Positions 1,443 to 55,440 of a stretch of DNA of 64,000 bases are shown in pieces. Numbering within the stretch: the first letter of the stretch is position 1; every line of letters begins with the position of its first letter. The notes beneath the pieces are model-generated. The model saw only the letters and a list, made by a program, of their open reading frames with translations. It was not told where the DNA came from and did no database searches. The stretch lies in IMG/VR virus record IMGVR_UViG_3300005920_000007; one strand, given 5' to 3'. The position numbers were made by a program, and so were the translations under genes. This stretch comes from an uncultured virus (IMG/VR IMGVR_UViG_3300005920_000007). Its lineage: Duplodnaviria; Heunggongvirae; Uroviricota; Caudoviricetes.

Positions 1443-1482
1443 GTCAATAAAAAAACCTGCCTAGCGCAGGTTTTTTATTGAC
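1443..1482. terminator. Bidirectional intrinsic terminator
   Basis: A-tract, CCTGC/GCAGG stem, T-tract. Confidence 0.8.
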
Positions 1483-1509
1483 TTTTTACGTGTATATAGT
1501 ATCCTTCTT

Positions 1510-1711
1510 TTTGTGAGATGCACTTGCTTTGCATGTGTCAGTCATCTCATGGGGCAGCTCCCCTCTACGACCCACCCGCTAACCGGGTTACGCATAAGCG
1601 TCACTGGAAAACCGCCAGCAACACTCTTTATTGACACCGGACATTATCATGGTGGCAAGGAGGAACGGGTCGGACTCTACCATGCCACAACATTGATAGG
1701 ACGGTATCCTT
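1510..1711 (+). ncRNA. Structured leader A (pseudoknot leader family)
   Basis: Promoter TTGACT at 1478; CGACCC 1568-1573 pairs with GGGTCG 1667-1672 in the loop of hairpin CATGGTGG/CTACCATG; GGAAC at 1662. Confidence 0.7.
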
Positions 1712-2383
1712 ATGCAAATTACATTTTCGCTTCGCAACAACAACCTTGTCATTGATAGCACACAGAGTTTAGACGACTTTTCCGCCGCATTCGCTGACCT
1801 CACAAAGCTGAAGAAGACGCACGTCAAAAGTACGCTGAGTAAGCTGTTAGGTCATAATCACATCAAGGCGCTTGAGAGCGTACTAACACCACTCCAGGAT
1901 TCACCACTTGCCCCTCTTTCGGACAAAACAATGAAAGGTCTTCAAGATCTTTACTGGTGGCTTGATGACAACATCGACATGAACACTGAGATGTATTTTG
2001 ATAGCCATGGTGAGGTTGACTCAAAAGCGTTGCAGGACATGTTATCGCCTTTGTTTGATATGATGCGACAACAACAGGCATCAGGTAAACCTATCACGAA
2101 CCGTGCAGAGGAAATCACCGCTAAACGCGATGGTATACTTTCCGACATGACGAAACATGCCCTTCAGCATGCGGATGTCGACAGCGAAACGCAGTTGGAG
2201 ACAAAGCATTATCACGCGGTTCAGGATGACGTTGAAGCGCTCAATCGAAAATTGTTTAACCATGATGATTATGGGAAAGCCTTGGCGCTACTTGAACGTG
2301 AGGGCATGCAAGATTTTGCAAACCTTCTTGCCGAGATGACAGAAACGAAAACGGCAGAGGATCACATCGCGCATACACTGTAG
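1712..2383 (+). CDS. Leader-associated family protein A
   Basis: Motif KKTHVKSTLSKLLGHNHIKAL; clear paralog of 53431-54045. Confidence 0.8.
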   Translation: MQITFSLRNNNLVIDSTQSLDDFSAAFADLTKLKKTHVKSTLSKLLGHNHIKALESVLTPLQDSPLAPLSDKTMKGLQDLYWWLDDNIDMNTEMYFDSHGEVDSKALQDMLSPLFDMMRQQQASGKPITNRAEEITAKRDGILSDMTKHALQHADVDSETQLETKHYHAVQDDVEALNRKLFNHDDYGKALALLEREGMQDFANLLAEMTETKTAEDHIAHTL

Positions 2384-2406
2384 CACCATGCTATCGCCAA
2401 TCACTT

Positions 2407-2431
2407 AAAGCCCGTACATACGGGCTTTTTT
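2407..2431 (+). terminator. Intrinsic terminator
   Basis: AAAGCCCGT/ACGGGCTTT plus T-tract. Confidence 0.85.
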
Positions 2432-2507
2432 ATTTTTGGTTATTTTCAATAACTACATATTTTTCTGATTTATATTGACATCACTCACAGACGGTGAGAT
2501 AATCATT

Positions 2508-2735
2508 ATACCTGCTCGACCCTACACTGCGGTGCGTGGTAACAGCAGAGGGAGGCTCCAGACCTTCGTCGCATCTCAGGTGCAACAGTACACAGTACCG
2601 TCGCACTCATGGCTAATACTGGCAACGTCTTCACTTAATAAAGACAACACACCCCTTTTTCGACATAACGTTACTTGACGAGTCGCAATTGGAACGAGAT
2701 GCACAATGATGATTACGACTCACTTGGAGAATGAT
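2508..2735 (+). ncRNA. Structured leader B
   Basis: Promoter TTGACA(2475)-N17-GATAAT; GCATCTC 2571-2577 pairs with GAGATGC 2696-2702 after GGAAC in hairpin GAGTCG/CGACTC. Confidence 0.7.
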
Positions 2736-3386
2736 ATGTCTACACCTGTTACTATCTTGGGCGCTGATCGCGCCACGTTAATGAACAACACCCGACGCGC
2801 ACTGGAAGGATTCCAAAAAGGACGTCCTGTTACGCGTGATGCATTGGTGAGAAAAGCGCTGGCCACCATCTTAGGGCAAGATAATGAGCACCTCCCTACC
2901 GCGGACTTCTCAATTAATAATGCCTCACTGGAGACACGCTTGCGTAACGCTATGGCGCCACTTACGTTTTTGCAAGACTGGGGCACTGGGGATGACGAGT
3001 ACCTTGATTTAAACTTTGAAGCGCGCGCGTGGGATGCCAATGCAGAGAAGGATGACATTACCGTCGACTACCGCATCAGCTTCCATATTCCGGGCAAATA
3101 CGCCTATTTCATTATCGGTAAAAATTATGGTAGTGGGATGGTCGGTGCCATTGAAATCCCGCTCTCACACCTGCCTTACGCGCCGATGTTATTGCTTGAA
3201 GGCAGCCGCGATGCGCAGTGGCTCGACGAGTCAGAGATTTTTGTTGGCATCGAAAAGATGTTGGATGTTTACCATGCCATTTGCGCCGACCCATTGCTAA
3301 AAGAAGTTTTTATCGATAACCGCCCTGCACTTTCTCTTAAATCCGCGAAAGATGTAGTCACAACATCGCACAGCGAGGTGCGTTGA
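2736..3386 (+). CDS. Leader-associated family protein B
   Basis: GGAG RBS; motif RDALVRKALATILGQDNEH. Confidence 0.8.
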   Translation: MSTPVTILGADRATLMNNTRRALEGFQKGRPVTRDALVRKALATILGQDNEHLPTADFSINNASLETRLRNAMAPLTFLQDWGTGDDEYLDLNFEARAWDANAEKDDITVDYRISFHIPGKYAYFIIGKNYGSGMVGAIEIPLSHLPYAPMLLLEGSRDAQWLDESEIFVGIEKMLDVYHAICADPLLKEVFIDNRPALSLKSAKDVVTTSHSEVR

Positions 3387-3387
3387 T

Positions 3388-3978
3388 ATGAGCAGCATAC
3401 TGCTTCATGAGAACAACCAAAGATTAGTGTATGACGATGCCACCTTAACGTGGGTGGCACCGCAAACCCAATACCCACTCATTAACCCTCATTCTCAGCT
3501 TCCGGCCATCCCTAGCCCCCGGCATAAGCATGAGATTGTGGGCACATTAACAATTCGGGTTTATGATACACGCTCACGTAAAGTAGAGCTTTTCCCCTTG
3601 GCATTACGCCAGGGGGTAATACATACGCCAAAACGCTGCTATGTCGGTGCAAGCTTAACGCTTGACGCTGTCAATAAGATGGGAATGTGGCTAAAATCCT
3701 GCGGAATTAACCATGAGTGGTCGCATCGCTATGTGACAAACATCATCCAAGCACTCAATCACGGCGATGTGCTATGTGGCGAAATTGAAGCCATCTACCG
3801 CAAAAAGAAACCCAATCCATCTGGAAAGCTTTATTTTGACCGCGCCGCCTACGAGTCTCGCCCGACCATTTTGACGTGGGGGGTTAACGTTGACCCACCA
3901 CGCCAACGCGCATGCTCACCCTTGTTGACGTTGGCGGTAAACAACAGTAAAACCATTGACAACGCTCACACCTTGTGA
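3388..3978 (+). CDS. hypothetical protein
   Basis: ORF coupled to the upstream gene, GAGG RBS. Confidence 0.7.
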   Translation: MSSILLHENNQRLVYDDATLTWVAPQTQYPLINPHSQLPAIPSPRHKHEIVGTLTIRVYDTRSRKVELFPLALRQGVIHTPKRCYVGASLTLDAVNKMGMWLKSCGINHEWSHRYVTNIIQALNHGDVLCGEIEAIYRKKKPNPSGKLYFDRAAYESRPTILTWGVNVDPPRQRACSPLLTLAVNNSKTIDNAHTL

Positions 3979-4017
3979 GACACTGACATTGTCAACACAA
4001 CGGTTAGAGAACCCATT

Positions 4018-4653
4018 ATGAATCAACCAACATGCGCTTCCATTTTGTCATACGCACCCACAGGCTGTCCGTCTCACTTACCATCCGCAGCAGGGGATGT
4101 TGATTTATATTTCAACACAGGCGCGCGCCATCATCGTTTTCACGCATTTGCGCTGCTAGATGGCAATCAGCTGACAAGCGTTGAGTTTTCACGTTGTCGT
4201 ACGCATTGCAAGCACAGTGAAGAAAGGCTTAACGCCGTTGTCAAAAGCTATCAGTCATATGACAAAAAGCTGGCTCGACAGTACCCTTTTGCCTACGGAT
4301 TTTTCGCTCACGCTGAGGCAGATACACCGTCACCTAAGGACGCATACCTTGACGACCACCAATTCTCGCTTGAGCTCATTGACGCCGAAACAACCATTGA
4401 TTATTACTGTTGCAGCGTCCCTGTCGCATTAGAGCATGGACGCCAAGGCTACCGACACTACCACAGCCTCCATCTTGTTTTTCATGAGAAGGGGAAGGAG
4501 TATGCTTACTCTCTCTTTGATGCGTCTCTGTGTCGTGACGCGATCCAACGCTACAATCAATGCGTGAAAGGCACTCGACGCTCACCTAAGTGCGCTGACG
4601 ACGGTTCACTACCACAGCACTTCTGCCCTGAAACTTACGCGCTGCAACATTAA
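4018..4653 (+). CDS. hypothetical Cys/His-rich protein
   Basis: Follows repeat copy 3956. Confidence 0.7.
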   Translation: MNQPTCASILSYAPTGCPSHLPSAAGDVDLYFNTGARHHRFHAFALLDGNQLTSVEFSRCRTHCKHSEERLNAVVKSYQSYDKKLARQYPFAYGFFAHAEADTPSPKDAYLDDHQFSLELIDAETTIDYYCCSVPVALEHGRQGYRHYHSLHLVFHEKGKEYAYSLFDASLCRDAIQRYNQCVKGTRRSPKCADDGSLPQHFCPETYALQH

Positions 4654-4672
4654 CTTTGATAAGGATTAAACC

Positions 4673-4975
4673 ATGCCTACACTAAAGGACTGCATCATTA
4701 CTGCGCCCAGCACAGGCGCGTGTGAAATTGATATAGAAAAAGCTAAAAAGTACTTCGATAAACACTGTTTCATCTCAAAGTGGCAAGGCGAGAAAGGCGA
4801 TGAATATCGACTGGTGAGAACCAAAGCCAATGCGCGAAATTTCAATCACGTCAAGGTCACCATCAGCGAAGAAGATGCATTAACCATCATCGACGCCCTT
4901 AACATGTACGAAATCACAAGCCGCATGTTTAACCGCGGCTCAACATTCCACGCGCCGCAGGACTCAGATTTTTAG
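4673..4975 (+). CDS. hypothetical protein
   Basis: AAGGA RBS. Confidence 0.75.
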   Translation: MPTLKDCIITAPSTGACEIDIEKAKKYFDKHCFISKWQGEKGDEYRLVRTKANARNFNHVKVTISEEDALTIIDALNMYEITSRMFNRGSTFHAPQDSDF

Positions 4976-5035
4976 ATATTGACTTTGCACACAGCATGTG
5001 AGACACTAGCACTGTCAACACATCAGAAAAAAACA

Positions 5036-5344
5036 ATGCCAAAAACAACCAAAGAGCAACTTGCCGCCATCAAATCGGACTACGAGTACGTTAAACGCAC
5101 GTATGGTGACGTCATTGATTTTACAGGCTCTGGCATGGAATCGACCCAGCTTGACAATATGCTAAAATCGCCCTGCAATGAAACGGCATTCGATTGTTTC
5201 AGAGAGCGCCTTATCTCCCTTTTTGAAGATGGCTATGAAGAGTCAGACAGGCAGTCTCGTGCATTGCCTTACTTCGATGACGAGCGGCTGCAAACCATTG
5301 GTGAGCGCTATTTGCTCCCCATTCCCGCGATTGATATTCAGTAA
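5036..5344 (+). CDS. hypothetical protein
   Basis: Follows repeat copy 4979; start corrected. Confidence 0.7.
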   Translation: MPKTTKEQLAAIKSDYEYVKRTYGDVIDFTGSGMESTQLDNMLKSPCNETAFDCFRERLISLFEDGYEESDRQSRALPYFDDERLQTIGERYLLPIPAIDIQ

Positions 5345-5364
5345 CGCGCGCGGAGAGATGAACT

Positions 5365-5529
5365 GTGCTATCAGAACACGATGTAAACACTTTAAAACAG
5401 CATCTTGAAGTAGGTAACTGGGTGAGTTGGAATGGTGGATACGGCATTGTAACTGCCCTTGATGACAAGTGCGTCTATGTCAGTGAAAACGCCATTGCGT
5501 GGCATAATATCACCTACGCCAAACGTTAA
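5365..5529 (+). CDS. small hypothetical protein (54 aa)
   Basis: GGAGAG RBS, GTG start; below the ORF-track cutoff. Confidence 0.45.
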   Translation: MLSEHDVNTLKQHLEVGNWVSWNGGYGIVTALDDKCVYVSENAIAWHNITYAKR

Positions 5530-5674
5530 TCTTTACGCGTAAAATTAATTGCGAGAACTGGCGTCACAATGCTTTCTTTTGTGATACCATCTTTTTCATC
5601 AACGATGATAAGGGCTGGCAGGAAGCAACGTCCATGAAAACCTGCCGCAAAGCAAACGACTATGCGAGGGCATT

Positions 5675-6175
5675 ATGACGGACAAAACAGCAACACTACT
5701 TTCACTCTTTCCTGGCGACATTAGCCGCACTCACGAGCAATATCAAACGATTAAAACGGGGCGCGCGCCATCACTTACGCAAGATGTATTTATTGCAAAC
5801 ATCCTTCGCGGCGTACAGCAGCATTCGCACGCACATCTTGGCAAAGCGGCCCTTTTATTGTCAGCAGATAAGGCCATTCCTCAAAAAGAAGGCATGACGT
5901 TTCTGGATGCCGCTATTACAACAACAACAGCAGCCATCTTCAGTTACGTTGTTGGTGTGCTCCACAGCGATGATGTGCCAGAGCGCATTGATGACATCAC
6001 AGCGACCACATGGAAATACATGGATAAAGAGCCGTCTAATAACATTGATACGAAAGCACTAGCGACACTTGAAGCACTCGAAGAAGACACCAACGAACGC
6101 ATCTTTACAGAGTCTGAAATTCAAGCAGAGCTTCGTGCGATGGCGGATGGCTGCGGGGGCGCTTGCACCATATAG
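5675..6175 (+). CDS. hypothetical protein with C-terminal GCGGACTI tail
   Basis: GAGG RBS; tail shared with 51588-52073. Confidence 0.75.
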   Translation: MTDKTATLLSLFPGDISRTHEQYQTIKTGRAPSLTQDVFIANILRGVQQHSHAHLGKAALLLSADKAIPQKEGMTFLDAAITTTTAAIFSYVVGVLHSDDVPERIDDITATTWKYMDKEPSNNIDTKALATLEALEEDTNERIFTESEIQAELRAMADGCGGACTI

Positions 6176-6277
6176 CGCGGCCAATTTGCACACTAATAAA
6201 ACAAAGTTTTCTTGACAACACACACTGTTTTTGAGATACTAATTCTGCCAACACAACAGATAACAAAGGAAACATTT

Positions 6278-6871
6278 ATGGCCACTAAGGGCGTAAACAA
6301 AGTCATCCTTGTAGGTAATCTTGGGAACGATCCTGAGGTTCGCTACATGCCTAACGGCAATGCCGTTGCCAACTTAAGTCTAGCAACAAGCGAAAGCTGG
6401 AAAGATCAGCAGGGTCAAGTTCAGGAACGCACTGAATGGCACCGACTTACCATGTATCGCCGACTGGCTGAGATTGCTGGTGAATACCTGAAAAAAGGTT
6501 CACAAATTTACGTTGAAGGTAAACTTCAAACGCGCAAATGGCAAGATCAGCAGGGCCAAGACAGGTACACCACTGAAATCATTGTCGATCAGATGCAAAT
6601 GCTCGGCGGTCGCAATAACAATGGTGGCGGCAACCAAGGCAATAACCAAAATCAAGGTGGTTACAACCAGAACCAAGGCGGCGGTAATCAAGGTGGTTAC
6701 AACCAAAACCAAGGCGGCGGTAATCAAGGTGGTTACAACCAGAACCAAGGCGGCAATAATGGCGGTGGCAACCAAGGTGGCGGTAATCAAAATCAAGGCG
6801 GTCAGAACGCTGGTAAGAACCCACCTATGGCAGAACCAGATTTTGACTTTGATGACGATATTCCTTTTTAG
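6278..6871 (+). CDS. ssb: single-stranded DNA-binding protein
   Basis: [32 protein letters not shown] acidic tip. Confidence 0.98.
6615..6805 (+). repeat. Coding tandem repeats in the SSB linker (33-bp [16 protein letters not shown] units)
   Basis: Repeated aatcaaggtggttacaacca. Confidence 0.85.
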
Positions 6872-7146
6872 CGAAGGTTAAGTTATTGATTTATAAGGTT
6901 TTTTGAGGGGCGGACTCCCACCCACTACCTGCCCCTCACCCTCCCCCGCTACACCAAACAATAATACCAAAAACACAAAGATGCACCGACTACAGAAGAA
7001 ATACTTGTCGCCAAATACAACAGCGCAATGTTCCAAATATCGACTTCACTACCTTTTCTTCCTCGTGTCTCCATTTTTAGCGCGAGGCATTGACAACCAT
7101 CGCAGATTTTGAGATACTAATCCTGTCAACACAACAGGAGAATGAC

Positions 7147-7554: not shown

Positions 7555-7623
7555 CCACACAACAAGAGGTGTCCTACGTAGGCCCCTCTCCCTACTTTTA
7601 GAACAAAACATTCAGGTAACACC

Positions 7624-9717: not shown

Positions 9718-9752
9718 GTTGACTTTCATGTTCAATACTGCCAAAATGAAAA

Positions 9753-9937
9753 TGCTTCACAGTGATGTGCGGCAAACACAGGTGAGAACCTAGCAGCCTT
9801 CCGGCGCCATGCGCTTGCAAATATCATTAACGATGAACATTACGCTATCATTTAGCAATCCACGTTTACATTATGAACTGTAGCGTGTCATCACCCCGGG
9901 AAGGCAAGAAAAAGACACGCAATACGGAGAATGATGT
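9753..9937 (+). ncRNA. Structured leader C
   Basis: Promoter TTGACT(9719)-N17-CAAAAT; GCCTTCC 9796-9802 pairs with GGAAGGC 9899-9905 in the loop of GCGTGTC/GACACGC. Confidence 0.7.
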
Positions 9938-10750
9938 ATGAACACACCTAAGTTATTTTTTACCACGCTTGTTAATGCTCTGCGCACTAAAGATGATGCA
10001 AAGGCATTGCGTCAGCACATGAATGACGTGAACGCCAAGCACTTCGGAAACACCCAAAAACCCGCCAAATTGTTCGCTTATTTCGCTGACATGATGGGCA
10101 CATCAAACGCAAACAAGCTATCAGCGTTACTTGATGAAAAAGTCAGCGACAATTTTGACGATCCTGCAACCTTCATCAGCACACTACTTAGCCCCATGAT
10201 GTCGCGTGTTGCGCGTGTTGGCGAAGTGGGTAGAGTGATTTCAGGTAGCGACCCAGCCCCTAGCTGGTTTATGAACCTTCCATTATTAACCATAAAAACG
10301 ACGGGATACACCGACGATCCTGAAAAAACCACCTGCTATCTTGGCGTTATTATCAACGTTGAATACTCTAGGGCCTTCGGTAAACTTATCGTTGATGCAA
10401 CATTAGCATTGTTTGATGATGCTGATCTCTCTGCCTGTGATATTGGATACGAAGTAGAACTTGAGACGCAAAATGACATCACCGAATACTTTAGTAGCGA
10501 GATGGAAATGGGATTTGGTCAAGCGACAAGCATCTCACTTCATGAGGGCGGCAAATTATTCTCCTCGTTAACTGGATTAACAACCTCTACGTTTGATGAA
10601 GGTGACGAACCCATTATCCCCTTTCTCGTCAACGGGATTGGCCATGAGCTAATTCGAACATTGTCGCCGGTGTGCGACTTGACGTTAAATTGCGGTGACA
10701 TCGCATGCCAACAGATGTTTTTAGCATCCGGTAAAATAGAAAAACGTTAA
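9938..10750 (+). CDS. Leader-associated family protein C
   Basis: GGAG RBS; motif KPAKLFAYFADMMGTSNANKL; acidic C-terminal domain. Confidence 0.8.
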   Translation: MNTPKLFFTTLVNALRTKDDAKALRQHMNDVNAKHFGNTQKPAKLFAYFADMMGTSNANKLSALLDEKVSDNFDDPATFISTLLSPMMSRVARVGEVGRVISGSDPAPSWFMNLPLLTIKTTGYTDDPEKTTCYLGVIINVEYSRAFGKLIVDATLALFDDADLSACDIGYEVELETQNDITEYFSSEMEMGFGQATSISLHEGGKLFSSLTGLTTSTFDEGDEPIIPFLVNGIGHELIRTLSPVCDLTLNCGDIACQQMFLASGKIEKR

Positions 10751-11649: not shown

Positions 11650-11689
11650 ATAAAAGTTGCACCCGTAACCACACTTTGTTAATATTTAA

Positions 11690-11856
11690 CTGTCGCCGCT
11701 AATAGCGACTGCCTCCTCCACCCTAACGGGCAAGGCCCATATTAGCGATGCTTTTCGACCTGAATCTTATTGAAACTACTGTCGCCAGCGGTTCATCAAT
11801 AACAGGCGCAAGGGAGGAACGGACTGTTATATTGAACCGAAAATGGAAACAGTATT
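11690..11856 (+). ncRNA. Structured leader D
   Basis: Promoter TTGCAC(11657)-N17-TAATAT; TCCTCC 11714-11719 pairs with GGAGGA 11813-11818 in the loop of ATAACAG/CTGTTAT. Confidence 0.65.
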
Positions 11857-12771
11857 ATGAAATTCACTACATCTTTCATTGACGCAGCGCTCGCACGCTT
11901 ACGCAACACCCTTAGCCTTCACGTATCGCGTGATCGTGTGTCTTCAGAGTTAAAACGCATGGCCTACAAAGCCGATGCCGACGATAAGGCGAAACTTAAC
12001 GCGCTACGTCATCAGCTTGATACCCTTGCGCTTGAAGACACGCCAATGGACAGAAAACGCGCACAGGAAACCCTTGCAACCGTACTTATCGGTCGGAATT
12101 ATGCGTTACTACAGCGCGATGCGATTTGCACTGACAACCCTACTCCTGCGAACTTTAATGCAGCCAGAGAAATGCTGGGCAATGCATTATCGCTGTTGCA
12201 TGACATGCAGTATTATGAGCGTTCAGCAAAGCACGCCTACGCACAATTGCTTAAGTTGCTCACTGAGCATGCAGGGGATGCCTTGCCTGTTCATGGCGAT
12301 GGCATCACACCATGGGAGAGCAGCGCTTCGCTGTTCGCATTTTATCGTGATAAACTCATTGCGCATAAGCCGACATTCACCTACACCGTTGAAGACTCAG
12401 CCGCGCCGCTTTTTACTCGTTCTGGATGCGACAAATACAACGTCAAAGTCACATTTGCTTTTGGCGAACACACCATCAAGCTGACTTGGGATGTCGCTAA
12501 CAATGAGTATGCGGAATTTGATGATGAGAGCATTGACATCGAACTTGACGGTTCCCCTATTGAGGAGGTTACGAACTTAGAGCCTTGTGATAATGGGAAG
12601 TATGTATTCGACCTCGTTAGTGATGTCATGTCGGATTACTTGAGAGAAAATGTTAGACTTGCCGACGACGACGTTAAGCCTCCAACAGATCCGTCACGCA
12701 ACGCCGAACGAGAACTCACAATGAATGCGCTTCTGTTAAGCCAGAATCCACCTCCACCAATAAACAAATAA
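11857..12771 (+). CDS. Leader-associated family protein D
   Basis: Motif DRKRAQETLATVLIGRNYALL. Confidence 0.8.
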   Translation: MKFTTSFIDAALARLRNTLSLHVSRDRVSSELKRMAYKADADDKAKLNALRHQLDTLALEDTPMDRKRAQETLATVLIGRNYALLQRDAICTDNPTPANFNAAREMLGNALSLLHDMQYYERSAKHAYAQLLKLLTEHAGDALPVHGDGITPWESSASLFAFYRDKLIAHKPTFTYTVEDSAAPLFTRSGCDKYNVKVTFAFGEHTIKLTWDVANNEYAEFDDESIDIELDGSPIEEVTNLEPCDNGKYVFDLVSDVMSDYLRENVRLADDDVKPPTDPSRNAERELTMNALLLSQNPPPPINK

Positions 12772-16972: not shown

Positions 16973-17004
16973 ATTGACATTTTAATCAATACTGGTATTA
17001 TTAA

Positions 17005-17205
17005 CACAAGTTTCGAGAGCGTTACGACGCTATGACCGAAATGTGTGTTGCAGCACACGCCGCCTACCGCCCTTTGGGTGTTTGTTTTATACAGACCGGC
17101 CACTCTTGCACCATTGAATGCACACTTACGTTTATAATCGTTTACCGCGTGAGGCTTCAAGGTTAATTGGTAGGGCTTGAACATTCACATTCGGAGAACG
17201 CTATT
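17005..17205 (+). ncRNA. Structured leader E
   Basis: Promoter TTGACA(16974)...TATTAT; CCTACC 17063-17068 pairs with GGTAGG 17169-17174 in the loop of TTCAAG/CTTGAA. Confidence 0.7.
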
Positions 17206-17832
17206 ATGAGCAACCCATTACGCCACCTTGCCACCGCCATTGTTACTGCTTGTCAAACTAAAGACAACGCAAAACACGTCAAACAGAGCACCGTCCTTGA
17301 TGTTCTTACTAAGCATGAAGGCTACAGAAGCATACAGGCACGAGACAACGCAACTGTCACGTGTAACGATGACAAACCACTGCCATCGGACGTTATCGCA
17401 CTGCGAGGGCTTCTTTACGCCAACTATCCGCATTCTGACTTACTTCCCATAGAGCTTGGTGAAGCCATCACATTTAAAGGCTCTCTCGTTTCGCACCCTG
17501 ATTGGGGAAGCGATGCACCCTTTGCCGTCATGTGGGATTTACTCAGCGATGAGCACCATGCTGCGGTCGATGAGTTTGAGCGTTGGGATCGCTTGTGCGA
17601 CCGCCTTGAAGACGTTATTGAGTCTGGCACTGACGCTATAAACGAAGTGTTGATTGCTTTCCCACCACGTATTGCGCAGTTTCTTCACGCAGAGTTTGAT
17701 GAAGTGACCGACGACACCATGTTGCCTGTTAAACAGGCTGCGGAGAAATATCGCGCCCTAGAGCGCTTTCAATCTGATGTTGAGAGTGTCACGGATGCGC
17801 TTCGCAATGCCCGTTCGGCACAAGACAGATAA
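17206..17832 (+). CDS. Leader-associated family protein E
   Basis: GGAG RBS; motif KQSTVLDVLTKHEGYRSIQA. Confidence 0.8.
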   Translation: MSNPLRHLATAIVTACQTKDNAKHVKQSTVLDVLTKHEGYRSIQARDNATVTCNDDKPLPSDVIALRGLLYANYPHSDLLPIELGEAITFKGSLVSHPDWGSDAPFAVMWDLLSDEHHAAVDEFERWDRLCDRLEDVIESGTDAINEVLIAFPPRIAQFLHAEFDEVTDDTMLPVKQAAEKYRALERFQSDVESVTDALRNARSAQDR

Positions 17833-21510: not shown

Positions 21511-21591
21511 TACGAGCAATATGTCGGTTTCTTATTGACAACACTCTCAGTTTTTGAGATACTAATCCTGTCAACACAACAGGAGAGAGAC

Positions 21592-33862: not shown

Positions 33863-33896
33863 GTTGACTCTAGTTTGTTCGTTTGATATATTTAAG

Positions 33897-34059
33897 TTGC
33901 TCCGATGGAGTGTAGGCCATACGACCTACGCCGCCCCTTTGGCCAAAATCGTAAGCAACATCTTTACCTATTCACCTGTGGTACGTTACATACAACGGCA
34001 TAATACCTTAGGTGCGATTGGGAACGGGGCACAAGCGCACCACTAATGAGGAACACCTT
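33897..34059 (+). ncRNA. Structured leader F
   Basis: Promoter TTGACT(33864)-N17-TATATT; GCCCC 33933-33937 pairs with GGGGC 34026-34030 after GGAAC in hairpin GGTGCG/CGCACC. Confidence 0.7.
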
Positions 34060-35031
34060 ATGTCATTACGTCAACAGATCGTGTCTAAATCACACATGCA
34101 GGGGCTACGAGACTCGCTGCGAGAATCATTCTCCCCGAATAAGCTTGCCATCTTGCTATCACACACCATTGACGACCCTGCTGTCCAGGCTGCAATGAGC
34201 AAGGCCATTGGCTCAAAAGGCGATAATAATCTCGACGCACGCGTTGCCGACGACATCACAGCCACACTGCTTGGCTTTAACAACACCCATGAAATGTTCG
34301 CGCATTACAATAATGTGACGCATGTTCGCCGCTGGGAATTTTTACACAAAAACAAGTACGAAGATTATGCGCCCGACTACTTGGTTGAAGTCGGTGTCCA
34401 TTTTTCTGTACTTGATGCCATCGCCTTAGAGGACAGCGATTTCGAGCACGACCGTATTGAGGAACGTTTTGAGCTCCTTGCTATGGATGAGGCCTACCCT
34501 GCCACTGATGAAGAGCTCGCAACCTGTATCACGTCAAAAAGCGATGCGCCTGCGGTTGTGCTATCAATGTCAAGAGATGGCCTATTTGATGGCATTAAAA
34601 TGTCAGACAGAACAATGGCGACACAGGCATTCACCCTGCTTGAATCAATGATGTTAACTACAAGCGCCGGCATTCCCTTTGCACTGGATAGCGACGAGGT
34701 GATGAAACGCTACACGCTCTCGGATATGGCGATATTCTCGGTTTCCCAGGATGTCGTTGATAGTGAGCTAGACCTCCTAACCGTTTTTCTTGAAGAGGGG
34801 GTGTTGGAGGGGGCACTTACCGTTCCACTATCAGCCGCATTGCTGCCACTCGCACCGCTCTCAATCAGTGACGACATACACACCTATGCCTTATTGGATG
34901 GGTACACGCTGCATTTTTCTCCGGCATCGATGATGTTCATCTTGGCGCATAACGACACCCCCTGCTTTGGCGGCGGTATACACCTCCATGAGAACGATCT
35001 TCGACGCCAAGCATTTACTGGCTTGGCATAA
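34060..35031 (+). CDS. Leader-associated family protein F
   Basis: GAGGA RBS; motif ARVADDITATLLGFNNTHEM. Confidence 0.8.
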   Translation: MSLRQQIVSKSHMQGLRDSLRESFSPNKLAILLSHTIDDPAVQAAMSKAIGSKGDNNLDARVADDITATLLGFNNTHEMFAHYNNVTHVRRWEFLHKNKYEDYAPDYLVEVGVHFSVLDAIALEDSDFEHDRIEERFELLAMDEAYPATDEELATCITSKSDAPAVVLSMSRDGLFDGIKMSDRTMATQAFTLLESMMLTTSAGIPFALDSDEVMKRYTLSDMAIFSVSQDVVDSELDLLTVFLEEGVLEGALTVPLSAALLPLAPLSISDDIHTYALLDGYTLHFSPASMMFILAHNDTPCFGGGIHLHENDLRRQAFTGLA

Positions 35032-49139: not shown

Positions 49140-49163
49140 CCTATCGTTGATGGGTAAAACAAA

Positions 49164-49289: not shown

Positions 49290-49547
49290 ATGATCATTCA
49301 TACCGAAAACACAGCAAAAAAAGCGCCTGAAACGTTTTCGTACTACTTCAGTCACAACACCGGAAAAATGGTGCACTTTGCTTCTCGCGTTAATGCGGTG
49401 AACTCGCCTTCCACGCTGATTGAGATTGTTGTCGACGCTCACCTTTATGCGCAAGACATTGATGTCATCCTTGATATCAATCTTCCTAAAGCCCAACAGG
49501 CCGCGACGGCTGCTATTGAAAAACAACAAAGCGAGGCAACCGCATGA
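49290..49547 (+). CDS. small hypothetical protein
   Basis: Follows repeat copy 49230. Confidence 0.7.
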   Translation: MIIHTENTAKKAPETFSYYFSHNTGKMVHFASRVNAVNSPSTLIEIVVDAHLYAQDIDVILDINLPKAQQAATAAIEKQQSEATA

Positions 49548-49903
49548 CTTACAGTATAAAATGGGACACGCTGAAAAAACGCGCCATAAAACACTTTATG
49601 GGTGAAACCGATATCAACAATGGCCTGATTGGAGGGGCGAGCCGAGACCTTGCTATTGCGGCCATCATGAAACACAACATCACACCTTCGTCATCGCCAC
49701 TATGCGATGAAAGCAACAACAACTGGCGCGCCCTTTTTGAGGCTGAGCGTCAAGAGGGTCAGCGAACCATTTCGCATTGGGATGTTAGATTGGCGCAGAC
49801 GCTTATCGCAAAATTTCCGACCATTATCAGCGCTAAATATGCCAATGTGAAACCTGATGCTGATGTGAATGACAAAGGTGAATGGGTGCTCTTTTTCTCT
49901 TAG
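49544..49903 (+). CDS. hypothetical protein
   Basis: ATGA overlap. Confidence 0.7.
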   Translation: MTYSIKWDTLKKRAIKHFMGETDINNGLIGGASRDLAIAAIMKHNITPSSSPLCDESNNNWRALFEAERQEGQRTISHWDVRLAQTLIAKFPTIISAKYANVKPDADVNDKGEWVLFFS

Positions 49904-49989
49904 TGTAATGCAGCAATAGACGTAAACCTGTTGACAATCCACACAGATTTTGAGATACTAACCTTGTCAACACAACAGGAGATAACAAC

Positions 49990-50694
49990 ATGTCAACCTT
50001 TGAGAAACAATGGGGCACACTTCACTTTTCTAAGTCAGGCTACCCTGCTTTTGTACGCCTTGTAAGAAAAGAGTACAACAATTACATCGCTGAATTACGC
50101 GAAAACGCCTTAAAGATGCACGCCAAACTGGCCAAAATTAAACCTCGCGAGCGCATGCGTGCGTTTGACAGCATGGTCTCTAAGAGCACACTTTACCTTA
50201 ACCCTCCGCGTGAAAGTCACAACTGCCTCGTTTACTCAAACGGCTTTGAGTCATCAGAAGCCGATTTAGACAAACTTCGCGATGAAATGTTTCGCGGCAA
50301 AAATGGCGCGCTGACAAAACCACGCATGGGGAGTTTCCCTACATTAACCAACAAGCAAACTGAGTTTAGCATTGATTGCGATGACGGCACGTTCACGCTA
50401 GAGCAGTGCAGTGACGGCTCAGGGACGCTGCATTGGCTCGTAGAATGGGACAACCATGCCGTTCGAGACGCGCAAAACACCGGTACTTACGGTGTGGTAT
50501 CTGCCGCATTGTCGAAGCACAAATGGAGACGTAACGAAGGGGGGGAATGGTATTTTGAGGATGAGCATTCTCGTGAAGCCGCAGAGGAAAATGGCACAGA
50601 AAGCACATCTGTATCCTCTCGATTCGGGCCGCTAGGCGAACAGATGCATCATGATCGTTTCAACTTGTCTCGCGGCAAACGCAGACGCGCTTAA
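49990..50694 (+). CDS. hypothetical protein
   Basis: Follows repeat copy 49931. Confidence 0.8.
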   Translation: MSTFEKQWGTLHFSKSGYPAFVRLVRKEYNNYIAELRENALKMHAKLAKIKPRERMRAFDSMVSKSTLYLNPPRESHNCLVYSNGFESSEADLDKLRDEMFRGKNGALTKPRMGSFPTLTNKQTEFSIDCDDGTFTLEQCSDGSGTLHWLVEWDNHAVRDAQNTGTYGVVSAALSKHKWRRNEGGEWYFEDEHSREAAEENGTESTSVSSRFGPLGEQMHHDRFNLSRGKRRRA

Positions 50695-50757
50695 CCCTTA
50701 GCAGCAAACACAACGGCACAGCAAAGGGTTGTGCCGCTTACTTCAGCGGGAGGCACC

Positions 50758-50910
50758 ATGGCATTACCGACATTCCATGAACTACTATCACTTGGCATCA
50801 AGACTTACGGTGACGCTGACAGCGAAAGCACAGACGGCATTTATGAATTAAATGGCGACACGTATGTGTTAACAGGCACCACGGTTATTAAGCAAAGTGA
50901 TGTTGATTAA
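50758..50910 (+). CDS. small hypothetical protein (50 aa)
   Basis: GGAGG RBS. Confidence 0.55.
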   Translation: MALPTFHELLSLGIKTYGDADSESTDGIYELNGDTYVLTGTTVIKQSDVD

Positions 50911-50981
50911 TCTCATCACTTGTTGACAACGCTCATCGAATTTGAGATACTATCCTTGTCAACACAACAAAGGTTAATCCC

Positions 50982-51497
50982 ATGAACTCAGCTTACGCAC
51001 AGTCTAATTTTATCTTTTTGCTTCAACTTTCAGGTGAAGCCCTTAATTATGCGCTTGCTGATGCGATGAGATTATCGCCTCGCATTAATACCACAACAGG
51101 CCGTACAGAAGTCCCTGTGACACCAAAGCTTGAAACGGTTATGAGCATGACATTTCCTGAAGCGGAACACGGCAGTATGGTTGAGTTCTCGCCTGCTACC
51201 AATCCTGTCCACGCGGTGATCATTCAAAAGTCGTTCCGCATTAACGCTAAACGCTTTGATGTGACGGGTGACAAATACATTCCGCTTCGTAAAAACAATA
51301 CCACGTTTTCCCCTAACGATTCACGCAAAGCGGCCTACCTGACGGGTGATACGGTCATGGAAGCCACCACTCGCCTTGCGCTAATGCTGACGTTAGGATT
51401 GCATGGCATTAAAAACAACCTCCACGGCTATGATGCAGAAAGCGTGAAAATCAATTTTCGCCCCAGTGTCTTAGCACGCCTTCGGACTTTTTCGTAA
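50982..51497 (+). CDS. hypothetical protein
   Basis: Follows repeat copy 50923. Confidence 0.75.
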   Translation: MNSAYAQSNFIFLLQLSGEALNYALADAMRLSPRINTTTGRTEVPVTPKLETVMSMTFPEAEHGSMVEFSPATNPVHAVIIQKSFRINAKRFDVTGDKYIPLRKNNTTFSPNDSRKAAYLTGDTVMEATTRLALMLTLGLHGIKNNLHGYDAESVKINFRPSVLARLRTFS

Positions 51498-51587
51498 GGC
51501 GAATCGCCCATTAACAAACCGTTTCATGTTGACTTTTTTGCTCAAATTTGAGACAATTTAACTGTCAACACAACCAGAGAGAAAATC

Positions 51588-52073
51588 ATGAGCAAGACCT
51601 TTAATCTTTTCGCGCCCGTTGTATCTGATTTGAACACCGTTGTTCAGCAGAACAAAAATACCGTATCTGTCGCGTCACTTATCAGCATGGCGGCAATCAC
51701 AGCCTTTCAAGCCACTATCAATATGGGTAAACAGGATGTGATCACGAAGGTAGGTAAACTCGACCCTGACTTCATCTTAGCTGAAACACGTCGCCCGCTA
51801 TCGTTTTTTGAACAGGCAGTGGTATATGCGGCAGAAGCGACCATCATGGAAACCCTGTCACTTCACAGCATCACGCCAGATGACAAAATTCGTGATATTA
51901 TCACTGAGCAATGGATAAACGAAGGGGCGTTTTTAACAGCGTCTCGCAGCACCGCAGGGTCAACGATGACAGAGGCAGAGCGTGCCGCTGCACGAGGTCG
52001 CTCTGAAGAAGAAATCCTTGCCGAATTGGCGGCCGCGGAGGGCGGATGTGCGGGCGGTGCATGCACCATATAG
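51588..52073 (+). CDS. hypothetical protein with C-terminal GCAGGACTI tail
   Basis: Follows repeat copy 51529. Confidence 0.8.
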   Translation: MSKTFNLFAPVVSDLNTVVQQNKNTVSVASLISMAAITAFQATINMGKQDVITKVGKLDPDFILAETRRPLSFFEQAVVYAAEATIMETLSLHSITPDDKIRDIITEQWINEGAFLTASRSTAGSTMTEAERAAARGRSEEEILAELAAAEGGCAGGACTI

Positions 52074-52179
52074 AGTACACGTAACCACATCGTACCTTTA
52101 GGTACGTTGCAAGAAACGGCAGCCTGTCATTACACGCTGCCCAATATCGCCATTTTATAACCACCACCAAGGACACACT

Positions 52180-52899
52180 ATGCGTACGTCATTTGTCACC
52201 TTGCTGTTTTCTGTATTTCTATCCACATCAGCGCTTGCTGTTGATGTCGTAAAGAAAAGCAGTAGCGGCATTTGCCACGACACCAGCAGCAACTGGTATG
52301 AAAAAACGAAGAACTTCACAGCCTATGCCACCATGGAGGCCTGTGTTGATTCTGGTGGACGCGCACCGCGCAATTACACCGGCACTAAACCGAAAGATAA
52401 CCTACCGCAAGGCGAACGCTATGATCGCGACGCATGGGAGCACTGGGTGGACGACGACAATGATTGCCAGAACACGCGTGCTGAGGTCTTGATTAGTCAC
52501 TCAGCGACCCCTGTTCTTTACAATAACATTATAAAACGATGTTATGTGACACGCGGTAAGTGGTATGGCGTCTATTCTGGCGAATACTATTATGACGACG
52601 ACGATCTTGATATTGACCACATTGTGCCCCTTGCCTATGCGCATGCGCACGGTGGTGATAAATGGAGCGCCGCTCAAAAGCGTGCTTTTGCCAACGATAT
52701 GGACAACCTTCTCCCTGTTAGCGCATCATTAAACAGGCAGAAATCTGCAAAAGGGCCGACTGACTGGATGCCGCCTTATCAACCTTACCGCTGCGAGTAT
52801 TTAGGTGAGTTTGACGGCATTATGAAAAAGTACTCTCTTGAGTATTTCCCTCACGAACTGCGCGTCATCAATAAAATGAAAAGCGCCTGCAATATGTAA
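52180..52899 (+). CDS. secreted HNH endonuclease (DUF1524-like)
   Basis: Signal peptide; DIDHIVPL, FAND..NL, NRQKSAKGP. Confidence 0.88.
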   Translation: MRTSFVTLLFSVFLSTSALAVDVVKKSSSGICHDTSSNWYEKTKNFTAYATMEACVDSGGRAPRNYTGTKPKDNLPQGERYDRDAWEHWVDDDNDCQNTRAEVLISHSATPVLYNNIIKRCYVTRGKWYGVYSGEYYYDDDDLDIDHIVPLAYAHAHGGDKWSAAQKRAFANDMDNLLPVSASLNRQKSAKGPTDWMPPYQPYRCEYLGEFDGIMKKYSLEYFPHELRVINKMKSACNM

Positions 52900-52925
52900 A
52901 CGCCAACACGTTTATTATATGCAAT

Positions 52926-52953
52926 AAAAAAGCGCCAAATAAGGCGCTTTTTT
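52926..52953. terminator. Bidirectional terminator
   Basis: AAAAAAGCGCC/GGCGCTTTTTT between convergent genes. Confidence 0.85.
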
Positions 52954-52974
52954 AATTTTTGTCCCTTGTCGGCA

Positions 52975-53355
52975 TTAGCACAGCAGGTCGACAACAACGG
53001 CCAATCGACGCTTCTGCTCATTCAATGCTTCCGCAATAGCAACCAGTTCATCGTCGGCATCCGCCAACTGAGCAAGCGTTACGATTCGCTTTGTGTGCTC
53101 TGCAATACTATGCGACAATTCCGACTTCATTGTTTCGAGGTCGGCCTTTGATGGTGTAGACGCATTAACCTTTGAAGTGAGCGCCTGCATATCAACACCT
53201 TTTAACGTTCTGCCGATATGAATGTTACCCGACAGTGGGTTTAAGGCATTGCTAAAATAGAAACCATGCTTATTCTTTCTGAGCGTTAAATGCATGGCTT
53301 TTTCTTTTGTGATAAGCGCACTTAAATGCACTTGTGTTACCGTGACTTCAGACAT
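52975..53355 (-). CDS. hypothetical coiled-coil protein
   Basis: AAGGAG RBS. Confidence 0.7.
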   Translation of the reverse strand: MSEVTVTQVHLSALITKEKAMHLTLRKNKHGFYFSNALNPLSGNIHIGRTLKGVDMQALTSKVNASTPSKADLETMKSELSHSIAEHTKRIVTLAQLADADDELVAIAEALNEQKRRLAVVVDLLC

Positions 53356-53430
53356 TGCTTTTCTCCTTGGTGGTGAAGTTAAATTATACCACCATATGAC
53401 CTATTTTCCAATTGCTTTTGCCCTTCTTAT

Positions 53431-54045
53431 TTAGCGCGACGTTAATACGTCATACTCTAAACTGTTCCTCACAATGCTGCCCATGATCTCAGCAACATCA
53501 ACCAGGCCTTGCTGCTCAAGTGTCACCAGGGCTTCTTTTAACAAGGGGTGGTTGGCCAGCTCTCGCGCATCATCACTTAACGCCTCTGCGGTAGACTCGT
53601 GCGCGTCAGCGGGCACATCGCTCATATCATCCACTTGCTGTGCGTCCAATATGTTTGATGACACTTGTGATTTCCACATATTTATTTTTTGCTCGCATGC
53701 TTTCAATGCATCATTTGGCGCATCTTCATCGCTATGCTTCTGTTGAAATACATGCGCTTTAGGGGGGAGGGCGGCCAGCACGTCTGACGCCCTAACCTCG
53801 TGTGTATCGTCAAGTAACGCCCCCGCTTTCGCTTGGATTTTTAGCCAGTTGTACAGGCCATCAATAGCCGCAGAGGGAGCAATCACCGGTGCCGGTGTTA
53901 ATTGATTGGTTAGTATCGCAATATCAGCACAGTTTTGCCCTTTTGCGATGGCGCTTCGCAGTCGCGTGGCGGGCATCTTCGTGTGCTGCGCAGTGTCTTT
54001 TGAAAATTGGTCGAGTGAATGTTTGCTATCAATAATAATAAACAC
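53431..54045 (-). CDS. Leader-associated family protein G
   Basis: GAGGA RBS, GTG start; paralog of 1712-2383. Confidence 0.8.
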   Translation of the reverse strand: MFIIIDSKHSLDQFSKDTAQHTKMPATRLRSAIAKGQNCADIAILTNQLTPAPVIAPSAAIDGLYNWLKIQAKAGALLDDTHEVRASDVLAALPPKAHVFQQKHSDEDAPNDALKACEQKINMWKSQVSSNILDAQQVDDMSDVPADAHESTAEALSDDARELANHPLLKEALVTLEQQGLVDVAEIMGSIVRNSLEYDVLTSR

Positions 54046-54258
54046 AATAATATCCTCTTTGTCGTCGGTATAAGGTGATGAGTTCGGCCATTGCCCAACA
54101 ACCGACTAAAAAGTCATATTGTGGTTGATGCAAATAGTGGTTGATGCAGTTTACCTTACTCAGGCAGACCATAAGACAGGTCGGCGAGTGGCCGTAGAGG
54201 GATGCCGTCCCAAGCACCGGCTTATCAGATGCATAACATGCAAATGGGCAGCGCTATG
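54046..54258 (-). ncRNA. Structured leader G
   Basis: Promoter TTGACA(54293)-N17-TATTAT; CGGCCA (54194-54189) pairs with TGGCCG (54090-54085) inside hairpin GTCGGT/ACCGAC. Confidence 0.7.
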
Positions 54259-54301
54259 GTGAAAATAATATCAACATCAACCTGTGCTGTCAACATAAAG
54301 C

Positions 54302-54330
54302 AAAAGGGCTGCAAGCGCAGCCCTTTTTTT
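54302..54330. terminator. Intrinsic terminator
   Basis: AAAAGGGCTGC/GCAGCCCTTTT. Confidence 0.8.
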
Positions 54331-54339
54331 GATCACCCA

Positions 54340-55110
54340 CTAACTCGAAAGCGTAACTAAAAAACATCCTTCTGGAATATCATCACGTGGTACCACAGCA
54401 AGGCCTGATGTCGTTTGGATGTCATGAAAACAAGCCAAAAACCCAGTCTTATTACGCAGCGTTTCCATAACATCTTCGCTGCTTCCATCGAAACCAACAG
54501 GGACATGAATGGCGACGACAGAGTAAACGTCCTGAATGCGGTCGATCACATGCTCTTCAAATTGGTCAATAGCGCCGATGTTTACTTTATCTGCACCCAT
54601 AAGTGTGGTTGAACTTGCATCTGGCATCACCCACTCTTCATTGGTGTTTTCATTAATATAAAGCGTAAAGCGCTTCGTATCACTCGTTTCAATAATATCT
54701 TGCATGGCGTATTCTGCCATGCAGTGAACGGTTACATCACCCAATAAACTCTGCTTGAATTGCTGTTCGCCATTCGGGAAGCCGATAAGTTTTAAGGTAA
54801 TATCGCGGAGGCGGTCTCGCCCTTTACTTTTATCCGTATTTATCGTGATATCGAGTGTGTCAGCAAGGATGCGCTTGACGTGCTCCTCAGTGACACAAAG
54901 TGACGCTTCGTCTTTTACCTCTGCCATAGGGTTGTTGACATAAGTGTTAACTTCACCTTTTACGACAGGGTACGCCAAGCATGAGCAAAGGGGGCATTCG
55001 CAGGTTGTGAAAGACTGACCGCTATCGAAGCGCTCACTTGCACGTCTTACAGCATTAAATTCGCTTTCATTTTGCGTAAAGTTACAGTTATCGCAGCGAT
55101 AATACATCAT
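54340..55110 (-). CDS. Leader-associated family protein H with N-terminal Zn ribbon
   Basis: CDNC...CPLC; motif GRDRLRDITLKLIGFPNG; start corrected to follow the GAGGA RBS. Confidence 0.8.
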   Translation of the reverse strand: MMYYRCDNCNFTQNESEFNAVRRASERFDSGQSFTTCECPLCSCLAYPVVKGEVNTYVNNPMAEVKDEASLCVTEEHVKRILADTLDITINTDKSKGRDRLRDITLKLIGFPNGEQQFKQSLLGDVTVHCMAEYAMQDIIETSDTKRFTLYINENTNEEWVMPDASSTTLMGADKVNIGAIDQFEEHVIDRIQDVYSVVAIHVPVGFDGSSEDVMETLRNKTGFLACFHDIQTTSGLAVVPRDDIPEGCFLVTLSS

Positions 55111-55310
55111 CGTATTCCTCATAGTATGACAGGTTGCGTCTACGTTCCTCAACTTGTCACGTATCGTGAACAAGTATGATGTTTTTTGCGTCATCGTAAA
55201 TGGATGTTTGCGTTGCGTTATCAGCACTGCGTTATGCAGTTGTAGACGAGCCAAGGCCGCCGCCTCACATACACCACCATCAACCAATTGGTGTGGCGTC
55301 ATACGTGTTA
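55111..55310 (-). ncRNA. Structured leader H
   Basis: Promoter TTGACA(55344)-N17-GATAAT; CGTCTAC (55248-55242) pairs with GTAGACG (55143-55137) after GGAAC in hairpin TGACAAGTTG/CAACCTGTCA. Confidence 0.7.
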
Positions 55311-55440
55311 AGCCTATTATCCATAAATCTTGGAGTGTTGTCAATGGGTTTATTTTTAATAAGGTTTTCTTTTTATGCTTGACAACATACTCAGGTTTTG
55401 AGACACTGTATCTGTCAACACAACAACTCAGGACGCCATT

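Follow-up and report, generated by a model that had tools for sequence, protein, structure and literature searches.

The DNA analysed here is a stretch of 64,000 nucleotides (nt; hereafter the window) from an uncultured virus record (IMG/VR IMGVR_UViG_3300005920_000007), which corresponds to positions 157,131-221,130 of a marine metagenome contig of 486,177 bp. It contains eight members of a previously uncatalogued, paralogous family of transcribed and structured 5' leaders, of which ten were found across the related contigs examined (covering about 115 kb of the window's 486-kb contig and 37 kb of its most divergent relative, a contig of 290 kb). In each unit the leader ends in a terminal hairpin close to the ribosome binding site (RBS), and the loop of this hairpin carries a segment, the 3' arm, that is complementary to a 5' arm far upstream, with a different sequence in every unit. 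An earlier note on this DNA, made from the letters alone, had proposed such a family of cis-acting leaders with a variable, mutually complementary arm pair, and this part of it is supported, the family being one of paralogues. Our preferred interpretation, held tentatively and with slightly less than even confidence, is that promoter and leader form a portable cassette whose long-range pseudoknot tunes translation initiation. The units are as follows (aa, amino acids; ORF, open reading frame).

1478..2383, + strand: unit A, -35 box at 1478, leader from about 1513, gene 1712-2383 (223 aa); 5' arm CGACCC 1568-1573, 3' arm GGGTCG 1667-1672, terminal hairpin 1648-1684 with its loop at 1654-1678
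2475..3386, + strand: unit B, -35 box at 2475, likely start at 2736 in an ORF open from 2706, gene end 3386; 5' arm GCATCTC 2571-2577, 3' arm GAGATGC 2696-2702, terminal hairpin 2680-2721
9719..10750, + strand: unit C, -35 box at 9719, gene 9938-10750 (270 aa); 5' arm GCCTTCC 9796-9802, 3' arm GGAAGGC 9899-9905, terminal hairpin 9883-9920
11657..12771, + strand: unit D, -35-like TTGCAC at 11657, gene 11857-12771 (304 aa); 5' arm TCCTCC 11714-11719, 3' arm GGAGGA 11813-11818, terminal hairpin 11799-11830
16974..17832, + strand: unit E, -35 box at 16974, gene 17206-17832 (208 aa); 5' arm CCTACC 17063-17068, 3' arm GGTAGG 17169-17174, terminal hairpin 17156-17181
33864..35031, + strand: unit F, -35 box at 33864, gene 34060-35031 (323 aa); 5' arm GCCCC 33933-33937, 3' arm GGGGC 34026-34030, the weakest pairing (5 bp), terminal hairpin 34011-34041
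53431..54293, - strand: unit G, -35 box at 54293, gene 54045-53431 with a GTG start (204 aa, homologue of protein A); 5' arm CGGCCA 54194-54189, 3' arm TGGCCG 54090-54085, terminal hairpin 54106-54064
54340..55344, - strand: unit H, -35 box at 55344, gene 55110-54340 (256 aa); 5' arm CGTCTAC 55248-55242, 3' arm GTAGACG 55143-55137, terminal hairpin 55160-55126
2691-2911 of locus L012, 11 kb beyond the window: unit I, arms TTCACCC/GGGTGAA
14821-15050 of locus L017, on the divergent 290-kb contig: unit J, arms GCTATCC/GGATAGC

All eight units described earlier are present in the window, each with its -35 box at the position given for it. A sigma70 promoter had been claimed for every unit, and each has one close to the consensus: the -35 and -10 boxes match 10-11 of 12 consensus positions in six units, D has TTGCAC in place of the -35 box, and C has a weaker -10 box. 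Terminators are predicted directly upstream of A, B and G. The leaders, originally put at 165-240 nt, measure 161-226 nt from the predicted start site to the start codon, and the terminal hairpin ends 8-27 nt before the start codon in all eight, in agreement with a hairpin near the RBS. The eight arm pairs are exactly as first written, lie 93-125 nt apart and differ in every unit; between the end of the 3' arm and the start codon there are 26-39 nt, and the 5' arm is located 130-170 nt upstream. In a repeat search the arms of A, B, C and H were among the five longest pairs and those of G lay within a longer imperfect pair, while D and E were not among the pairs shown and the 5-nt arm of F fell below the length cut-off. 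No other gene in the window is preceded by this leader, as had been stated, and most of the others carry a short conserved 5' untranslated region (5'UTR).

The order of elements within the leader is a small hairpin (Hx), the single-stranded arm of 5-7 nt, a second hairpin (Hy), a variable middle part and the terminal hairpin. In all ten units the 5' arm begins 0-5 nt downstream of Hx; Hy usually follows the arm, and its loop is often YUAAC. The terminal hairpin has a stem of 5-8 bp, with a different sequence in each unit, and a loop of 14-31 nt that always holds the 3' arm, and it often extends downward as a stem that reaches the Shine-Dalgarno sequence (SD) and the start codon. A GNRA- or UNR-like word (GGAAC, GUAAC, GCAAU or GACAAC) precedes the 3' arm in eight of the ten units, and GGAAC is found in the loop of five of the eight window units (A, B, D, F and H), the count reported before. 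Fast-pairing antisense loops (YUNR) are known to carry a turn motif immediately 5' of the bases that pair.

Two further features of the terminal hairpin were observed. In A (1648-1690) and G (54064-54111, - strand) it can be drawn in two registers that exclude each other, namely CATGGT/ACCATG or GTGGCA/TGCCAC for A, and GTCGGT/ACCGAC or TTGTTG/CGACAA for G; this could be part of a switch. Moreover, ORFs pass through the hairpin in A (1649-1696), B (2676-2735), C (9885-9941) and F (34012-34059), beginning in or just before its 5' strand and ending at the SD in A, a single base short of the start codon in B and in an overlap with the start codon in C, whereas that of F runs in phase into the gene. 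Translational coupling through these upstream ORFs was considered and set aside, as no SD sequences precede them; the ATGA overlaps at the unit starts follow from second codons for Ser, Asn or Lys.

The most persuasive evidence for the long-range pairing comes from units I and J. Unit I was located from its promoter, long leader and ORF alone and unit J from a list of long gaps on the divergent contig, the complementarity being left unused in both cases. Both units have 7-bp pairings, 92 and 93 nt apart, respectively, which lie directly after AAC in the hairpin loop and about 30 nt before the start codon, with prospective p values of 0.015 for I and 0.009 for J (combined 0.0013). In unit J the pairing is accompanied by the full arrangement of Hx, linker, arm and Hy. 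A comparison with shuffled leaders, suggested in the earlier note as a check on the complementarity, leaves the pairing within chance unit by unit (p 0.04-0.84, the highest value belonging to the 5 bp of F) and speaks for it in combination (Fisher 0.006; 3e-4 when GC-weighted). A register test anchored on the base after AAC gave p 3e-4, and a hairpin-blind form of the AAC-anchored test on all ten units gave p 9e-4. When loops were permuted among the leaders, cognate and non-cognate loops were distinguished by their longest match with p 0.0002. With moderate statistical support, the pairing is thus beyond chance when the units are taken together, not singly.

Constraint on the arms was assessed by counting substitutions in nine orthologue pairs covering 2,069 leader positions. 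Although 97 of these positions differ, none of the 114 arm positions does (Fisher p 0.0056), and arms and terminal hairpin together are substituted at 5 of 380 positions, compared to 92 of 1,689 elsewhere (Fisher p 2e-4). The leader is also better conserved in nucleotide identity than the coding sequence behind it in five of six diverged pairs, with values for leader and coding sequence of 98.3 and 74.2% for H, 84.5 and 63.3% for D, 95.7 and 90.5% for A, 93.5 and 85.2% for E, and 95.4 and 93.5% for C; the exception is G with 94.0 and 97.2%. At the amino acid level, the orthologues of protein H (54340-55110, - strand, against L014 3163-3930) share 71.5% and those of protein D (11857-12771 against L009) 62.5% identity. 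Such divergence of H and D behind a conserved leader could be the outcome of diversifying selection or of a cassette-like exchange of the coding part.

Among the paralogues, the leaders of A, G and I can be aligned with one another, and after local realignment by eye their arms show compensatory differences (CGACCC/GGGTCG in A, CGGCCA/TGGCCG in G and TTCACCC/GGGTGAA in I). A further compensatory difference, by our own reading and partly our own local alignment, separates C (GCCTTCC/GGAAGGC) from E (CCTACC/GGTAGG). In a MAFFT alignment of A, G and I the Hx helix is 100% paired and includes two pairs in which both bases have changed, and the structure as a whole is 79.3% paired as drawn compared to 69% after a slide by +1. 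Covariation, which the earlier note had named as a check, therefore has a divided outcome: the realignment by eye of A and G shows compensatory differences, but the only tool-made count, on the MAFFT alignment, gave the pseudoknot as drawn no support. Paired cells reached 64.7% there and double changes were absent, the 3' arm of G being placed one column off, an offset that makes the count uninformative for this helix. MAFFT alignments of the eight leaders and of their 3' modules were structurally inconsistent.

The compatibility of the two helices and the access to the RBS were examined by folding. With the arms held unpaired, the terminal hairpin was kept in the minimum-energy fold of eight of nine units (H has a variant), at a cost of 1.6-7.4 kcal/mol. 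As the hairpin persists with the arms free, both helices are compatible as a pseudoknot, and we infer that they can form at once. The RBS was less accessible than with a shuffled leader in seven of nine units (about 0.007 in our own Fisher combination).

On this basis a mechanism can be proposed. Transcription would start after the terminator, from a near-consensus, host-type sigma70 promoter, and pairing of the arms over 92-125 nt would create a long-range pseudoknot beside the RBS. The extension of the terminal hairpin would partly cover SD and start codon, and because of this partial cover the pseudoknot would be expected to set the openness of the initiation region, acting as a cis-acting translational switch or enhancer; whether it activates or represses is something that sequence cannot tell. 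The cassette, better conserved than its cargo, stands before unrelated, fast-evolving acidic orphan genes.

The closest parallel for this way of working is the rep switch of plasmid ColIb-P9, to which the earlier note had loosely compared the units. A masked weak start is opened there by a pseudoknot between a loop and a distant segment, and the loop bases of repZ are presented by a turn motif, rUUGGCG (PMC4705826). The units resemble repZ of ColIb-P9 (IncI-alpha, with relatives in IncB, IncK and IncL/M) in that a loop pairs with a segment about 100 nt away near a masked initiation region; a loop complementary to a distant segment is found in ten of ten units, with 5-7 bp over 92-125 nt. The turn motif also has a counterpart in UUGG, with which the loops of units B, E, F and G begin. 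In other respects the units differ. Their polarity is reversed, with the loop near the RBS and the partner upstream, and this partner is not immediately upstream of the SD, the 3' arm lying in the loop 26-39 nt before the start. A conserved leader peptide is not evident, and the ORFs that cross the hairpin in some units are without a credible SD. An antisense promoter matching at least 10 of 12 positions was not found in leaders A, B, G and H, where only a weak 9/12 site at 54023 was seen. Finally, the units are ten dispersed copies before cargo genes, unlike the single copy before a replication gene. The comparison therefore holds as an analogy of mechanism but not as membership of the ColIb-P9 system.

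Two other leaders with long-range pairing were compared. In the rpmI-rplT operon of E. coli, a long-range leader pseudoknot serves as the translational operator of L20, a basic RNA-binding protein encoded in the same operon, whereas the proteins downstream of the present units are acidic and unrelated. In the leader of the RNA phage MS2 an upstream segment pairs across several hairpins with the purine-rich SD of the maturation gene and thereby closes its start, so that folding kinetics set translation; in the units the downstream partner is not the SD itself but lies in the hairpin loop, 26-39 nt before the start codon. Type III toxin-antitoxin RNAs (ToxI-like) consist of a short pseudoknot-forming unit repeated in tandem ahead of the toxin gene; no such array was seen on reading the leaders by eye, no tandem-repeat program search having been made.

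Several results weigh against the proposed pseudoknot, and some of them would suit the alternative that the pairing is coincidental, i.e. that these are paralogous long UTRs conserved for other reasons, such as promoter-proximal signals, hairpins or recombination homology, with no long-range helix. The single pairings are within chance, and with a loose descriptor 5-9 nt matches between loop and upstream sequence occur at dozens of other gene starts. By duplex energy, cognate and non-cognate loops differ only with p 0.07, the folding-energy z-scores are unremarkable (mean -1.0, range -0.05 to -2.06), and antisense folds score equal to or better than sense for A, D, F and H. The MAFFT pair count was negative as described above, and the leaders have no BLAST-significant mutual similarity (none with an E value below 0.05), sharing only short collinear words. 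No compensatory arm changes were found among the orthologues, in which the arms are merely conserved, so that the 0/114 changes amount to constraint without compensatory evidence. RBS occlusion is absent in B and F. Coincidence is nevertheless judged improbable: the combined tests reach about 1e-3, I and J match at the predicted register and distance, the arms are free of substitutions among orthologues, and the 5' arm follows a hairpin within 0-5 nt in ten of ten units.

Transcription of the leaders was followed in sequencing data. The window stretch was found in 20 listed sequencing runs from 10 studies, 15 of these runs being recorded as RNA, and contigs from four RNA-library runs span leaders contiguously with their genes. 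Pieces of the RNA-run contigs start at 1513, 1540 and 1551 in A, at 2550 and 2609 in B, at 9770 in C, and at 11719 and 11737 in D; the piece starting at 1513, from RNA run X5, coincides with the predicted start site of A. Contigs cannot prove 5' ends, however, and the RNA libraries may contain carried-over DNA; in addition, contig X9 (1540-4773) reads through the terminator of A and the promoter of B. The earlier note had named a transcription start next to the ATG as an observation that would overturn its reading; the RNA-library contigs argue only weakly against such a start.

The same contigs bear on the possibility that the element acts as single-stranded DNA, as a promoter of the Frpo/ssi type or a priming signal of a conjugative leading region. 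Like the units, the Frpo/ssi promoters of plasmid leading regions are non-coding, structured and a few hundred bases long, and they are found dispersed in front of early genes of a mobile element that evolve fast; Frpo-like elements precede SSB and anti-defence genes (PMC11541004). The surroundings of the units resemble a leading region: they include genes for an SSB and a PcfJ-like protein, and small orphan genes run almost all in one direction over more than 110 kb. Antisense folds also score as well as sense. A Frpo-type reading fails its defining test, however: folded as DNA, neither strand offers the promoter boxes a complementary arm. In nine units the region from -35 to -10 was without a dedicated partner (paired probability 0.26-0.59, compared to 0.49-0.59 for the whole stretch), so that the hairpin which makes -35 and -10 double-stranded in Frpo/ssi is missing. 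The promoters look like ordinary duplex promoters directly after terminators, units G and H are oppositely oriented to the others, and the stems of B, H and I contain G-T pairs, which in the opposite strand would become C-A mismatches. Together with the coverage of the leaders by RNA-library contigs, this makes a single-stranded DNA element extremely improbable.

The leaders match no Rfam family, in line with the earlier note, which recognised no named RNA family in them: a search of the whole window against Rfam 15 gave no match at gathering score. When relaxed to E values up to 10 for the A/B and G/H regions (leaders C, D, E and F being searched at the gathering threshold only), the search gave 23 weak matches in 1400-2800 and 5 in 54000-55400, mostly on terminators; within the leaders the highest score was 17.8 bits, for a family whose gathering score is 70. 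The pseudoknotted architecture of several hairpins just upstream of the RBS would suit a riboswitch aptamer for a small molecule. Yet Rfam gave no meaningful match even at E values up to 10 in the A/B and G/H regions, very few nucleotides are conserved among the ten paralogues, and the downstream genes are unrelated orphans without a metabolic theme, so that a riboswitch, too, has hardly any probability.

As to the proteins encoded downstream, the earlier note had assigned to each RNA a cognate protein and to all eight proteins a similar helical motif. Neither claim was borne out. Among 36 pairs of nine proteins compared with hhalign, A and G were the sole clear pair (97%), C and E reached 8.8%, and weak N-terminal similarity was seen for B and J as well as C and E. 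A leave-one-out hidden Markov model of the N-terminal region recovered one of seven members. The eight window proteins are acidic (isoelectric point 4.5-5.0, net charge -9 to -28), which does not set them apart from the acidic background (median 5.4), and searches of Pfam, PHROGs and the ESM Atlas gave no family and nothing usable; an AlphaFold2 model of protein A was poor (predicted local distance difference test score, pLDDT, 49). Protein I had an hhalign probability of 0.1% against A and against G, although leader I resembles leaders A and G.

Binding of the leader RNA by the protein encoded after it, as autoregulation or as an RNA-protein particle with a variable domain, would agree with the joint occurrence of variable arms and variable proteins and with a loose helix-Gly-x-x-Asn stretch that is visible by eye in most of the proteins. 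We consider it very unlikely. The window proteins are acidic throughout and match no RNA-binding or other family, clear homology is limited to one pair in 36, and the leave-one-out model of the motif missed six of seven members. The arms remained invariant while protein H changed 28.5% and protein D 37.5% of its residues, and the alignable leaders A, G and I stand before proteins of which I is unrelated to A and G. As unrelated, fast-diverging proteins lie behind conserved leaders, the leader is therefore better regarded as a portable expression module than as the partner of a specific protein.

A different trans-acting partner was also considered. The RNA may be genuinely structured with arms that only hold a scaffold, which is bound by a common factor (a host CsrA-like protein, a protein of the element or a ribonuclease) or which serves mainly in stabilising or processing the mRNA; the leader would then not be a translational switch in its own right. 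Upstream of the variable arm the loops share conserved words, GGAGGAACGG in A and D and GAGGAACG in A, D and H, and UAAC hairpin loops recur in A, C, D, H and I. A GGA or other purine run is present in nine of the ten terminal loops, with the real SD 25-40 nt further on, and in CsrA targets a spacing of this kind between loop purine run and SD is typical. A regulon would also be in keeping with the presence of ten copies in a single element family. On the other hand, no candidate factor was found in a window with almost no recognisable proteins, and for a site bound by a protein the paralogues have very little sequence in common; the scaffold reading is accordingly thought unlikely.

The tuning of initiation by a pseudoknot can be extended to a more specific scenario, which is speculative and rather unlikely as a whole. 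The units would then be a portable 'promoter plus switch' cassette of a giant marine element, with a pseudoknot nucleated by a GNRA or UNR turn as a repZ-like gate, private arms, and a history of having been moved before diversifying cargo. A private arm in each copy would leave the ten mRNAs unable to pair with one another. Placed before cargo genes, perhaps for anti-defence or establishment, the cassette might give these a separate expression programme that needs host RNA polymerase only, distinct from that of at least 31 genes with another conserved promoter and 5'UTR. If the pairing is real, the leaders would constitute a new and so far uncatalogued type of bacterial mRNA leader, characterised by a long-range pseudoknot and present in ten copies in one family of giant marine elements, and the ten different arm pairs would offer a natural mutational series for the pairing of distant segments and the gating of translation. 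The leaders would also mark a small set of fast-evolving orphan genes under a separate expression regime, and these genes would be sensible first candidates for functions in host interaction or anti-defence.

The known distribution of the leader motif is narrow. A near-identity search of phage and plasmid collections yielded only an 84-nt SSB-like stretch and a 41-nt stretch, with no relatives of the leaders, and a search for related loci with proteins A, F and D gave no match in viral contigs, nor did protein A in species genomes. The promoter pattern of the window had no match in species genomes or viral contigs, and a shorter pattern gave seven single matches in viral contigs, taken as chance by a rough estimate from collection size. 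The signature promoter does occur in two giant relatives of the window's contig, of 230 kb and 290 kb, and in about fifteen short marine contigs. The closest named relative of the proteins searched, a homologue of one window protein with 51% identity, is encoded on a 600-kb plasmid of Alteromonas mediterranea, which is without the promoter element and differs in layout. Given the lack of similar DNA in the collections and this closest protein relative on an Alteromonas plasmid, the source is treated as an uncultured giant mobile element, plasmid or phage, of a marine gammaproteobacterium.

The window itself has about 130 ORFs, small and nearly all on the + strand. Of 97 ORFs scanned with Pfam, five had matches at E values up to 0.001, four of which look meaningful (SSB, a deaminase-like protein, a PcfJ-like protein and a GmrSD_C/HNH protein), the fifth being DUF4527, below the cutoff; PHROGs added only families of unknown function. 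The 84 nt at 5095-5178 are 81-82% identical to Vibrio phage SSB genes and lie within the ORF 4979-5344, which has no Pfam SSB match, the recognisable SSB gene being that at 6278-6871. Another 51 kb of the window's contig has the same look, plus two TnpB genes. In all, positions 154220-273024 of this contig, Ga0209379_10000010 (the window with loci L008, L012, L027 and others), hold more than 110 kb of small, almost all co-oriented genes. Nearly all of these have a promoter of their own, and hardly any belongs to a Pfam or PHROG family. The TnpB genes, of the IS605 OrfB type with a Cas12f1-like TNB domain, lie outside the window on the same contig (L012 8204-9718 and L008 514-1614), and a long, structured-looking non-coding stretch is located upstream of the first.

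A second promoter element, much more abundant than the leader units, lies immediately upstream of the RBS of short-leader genes. It is a highly conserved 46-nt repeat of promoter plus 5'UTR with at least 31 sites on the + strand of the window (e.g. 6212-6257, 7090-7135, 21535-21580 and 63774-63819) and the pattern TTGACAAC..CTCTCAG.TTTTGAGATACT......GTCAACACAAC. Nested inverted repeats, TTGACA/TGTCAA and TCTCA/TGAGA, are found inside it, and the word GTCAACACAAC is also present downstream of other promoters, some on the minus strand. The element, which may be an operator or a private promoter, marks a family of giant marine contigs, with 51 matching stretches.

Lastly, a conserved 23-nt hairpin word, GGTGATGTGCTGACACACTCACC, is located at 58046-58068 and 60377-60399, directly 5' of a GC-rich terminator hairpin. 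Further copies precede unit I (L012) and are scattered over several sites of Ga0208895_1000001 (L047, L037), and with two window copies compared to 0 expected it is a repeated 3'-end element.

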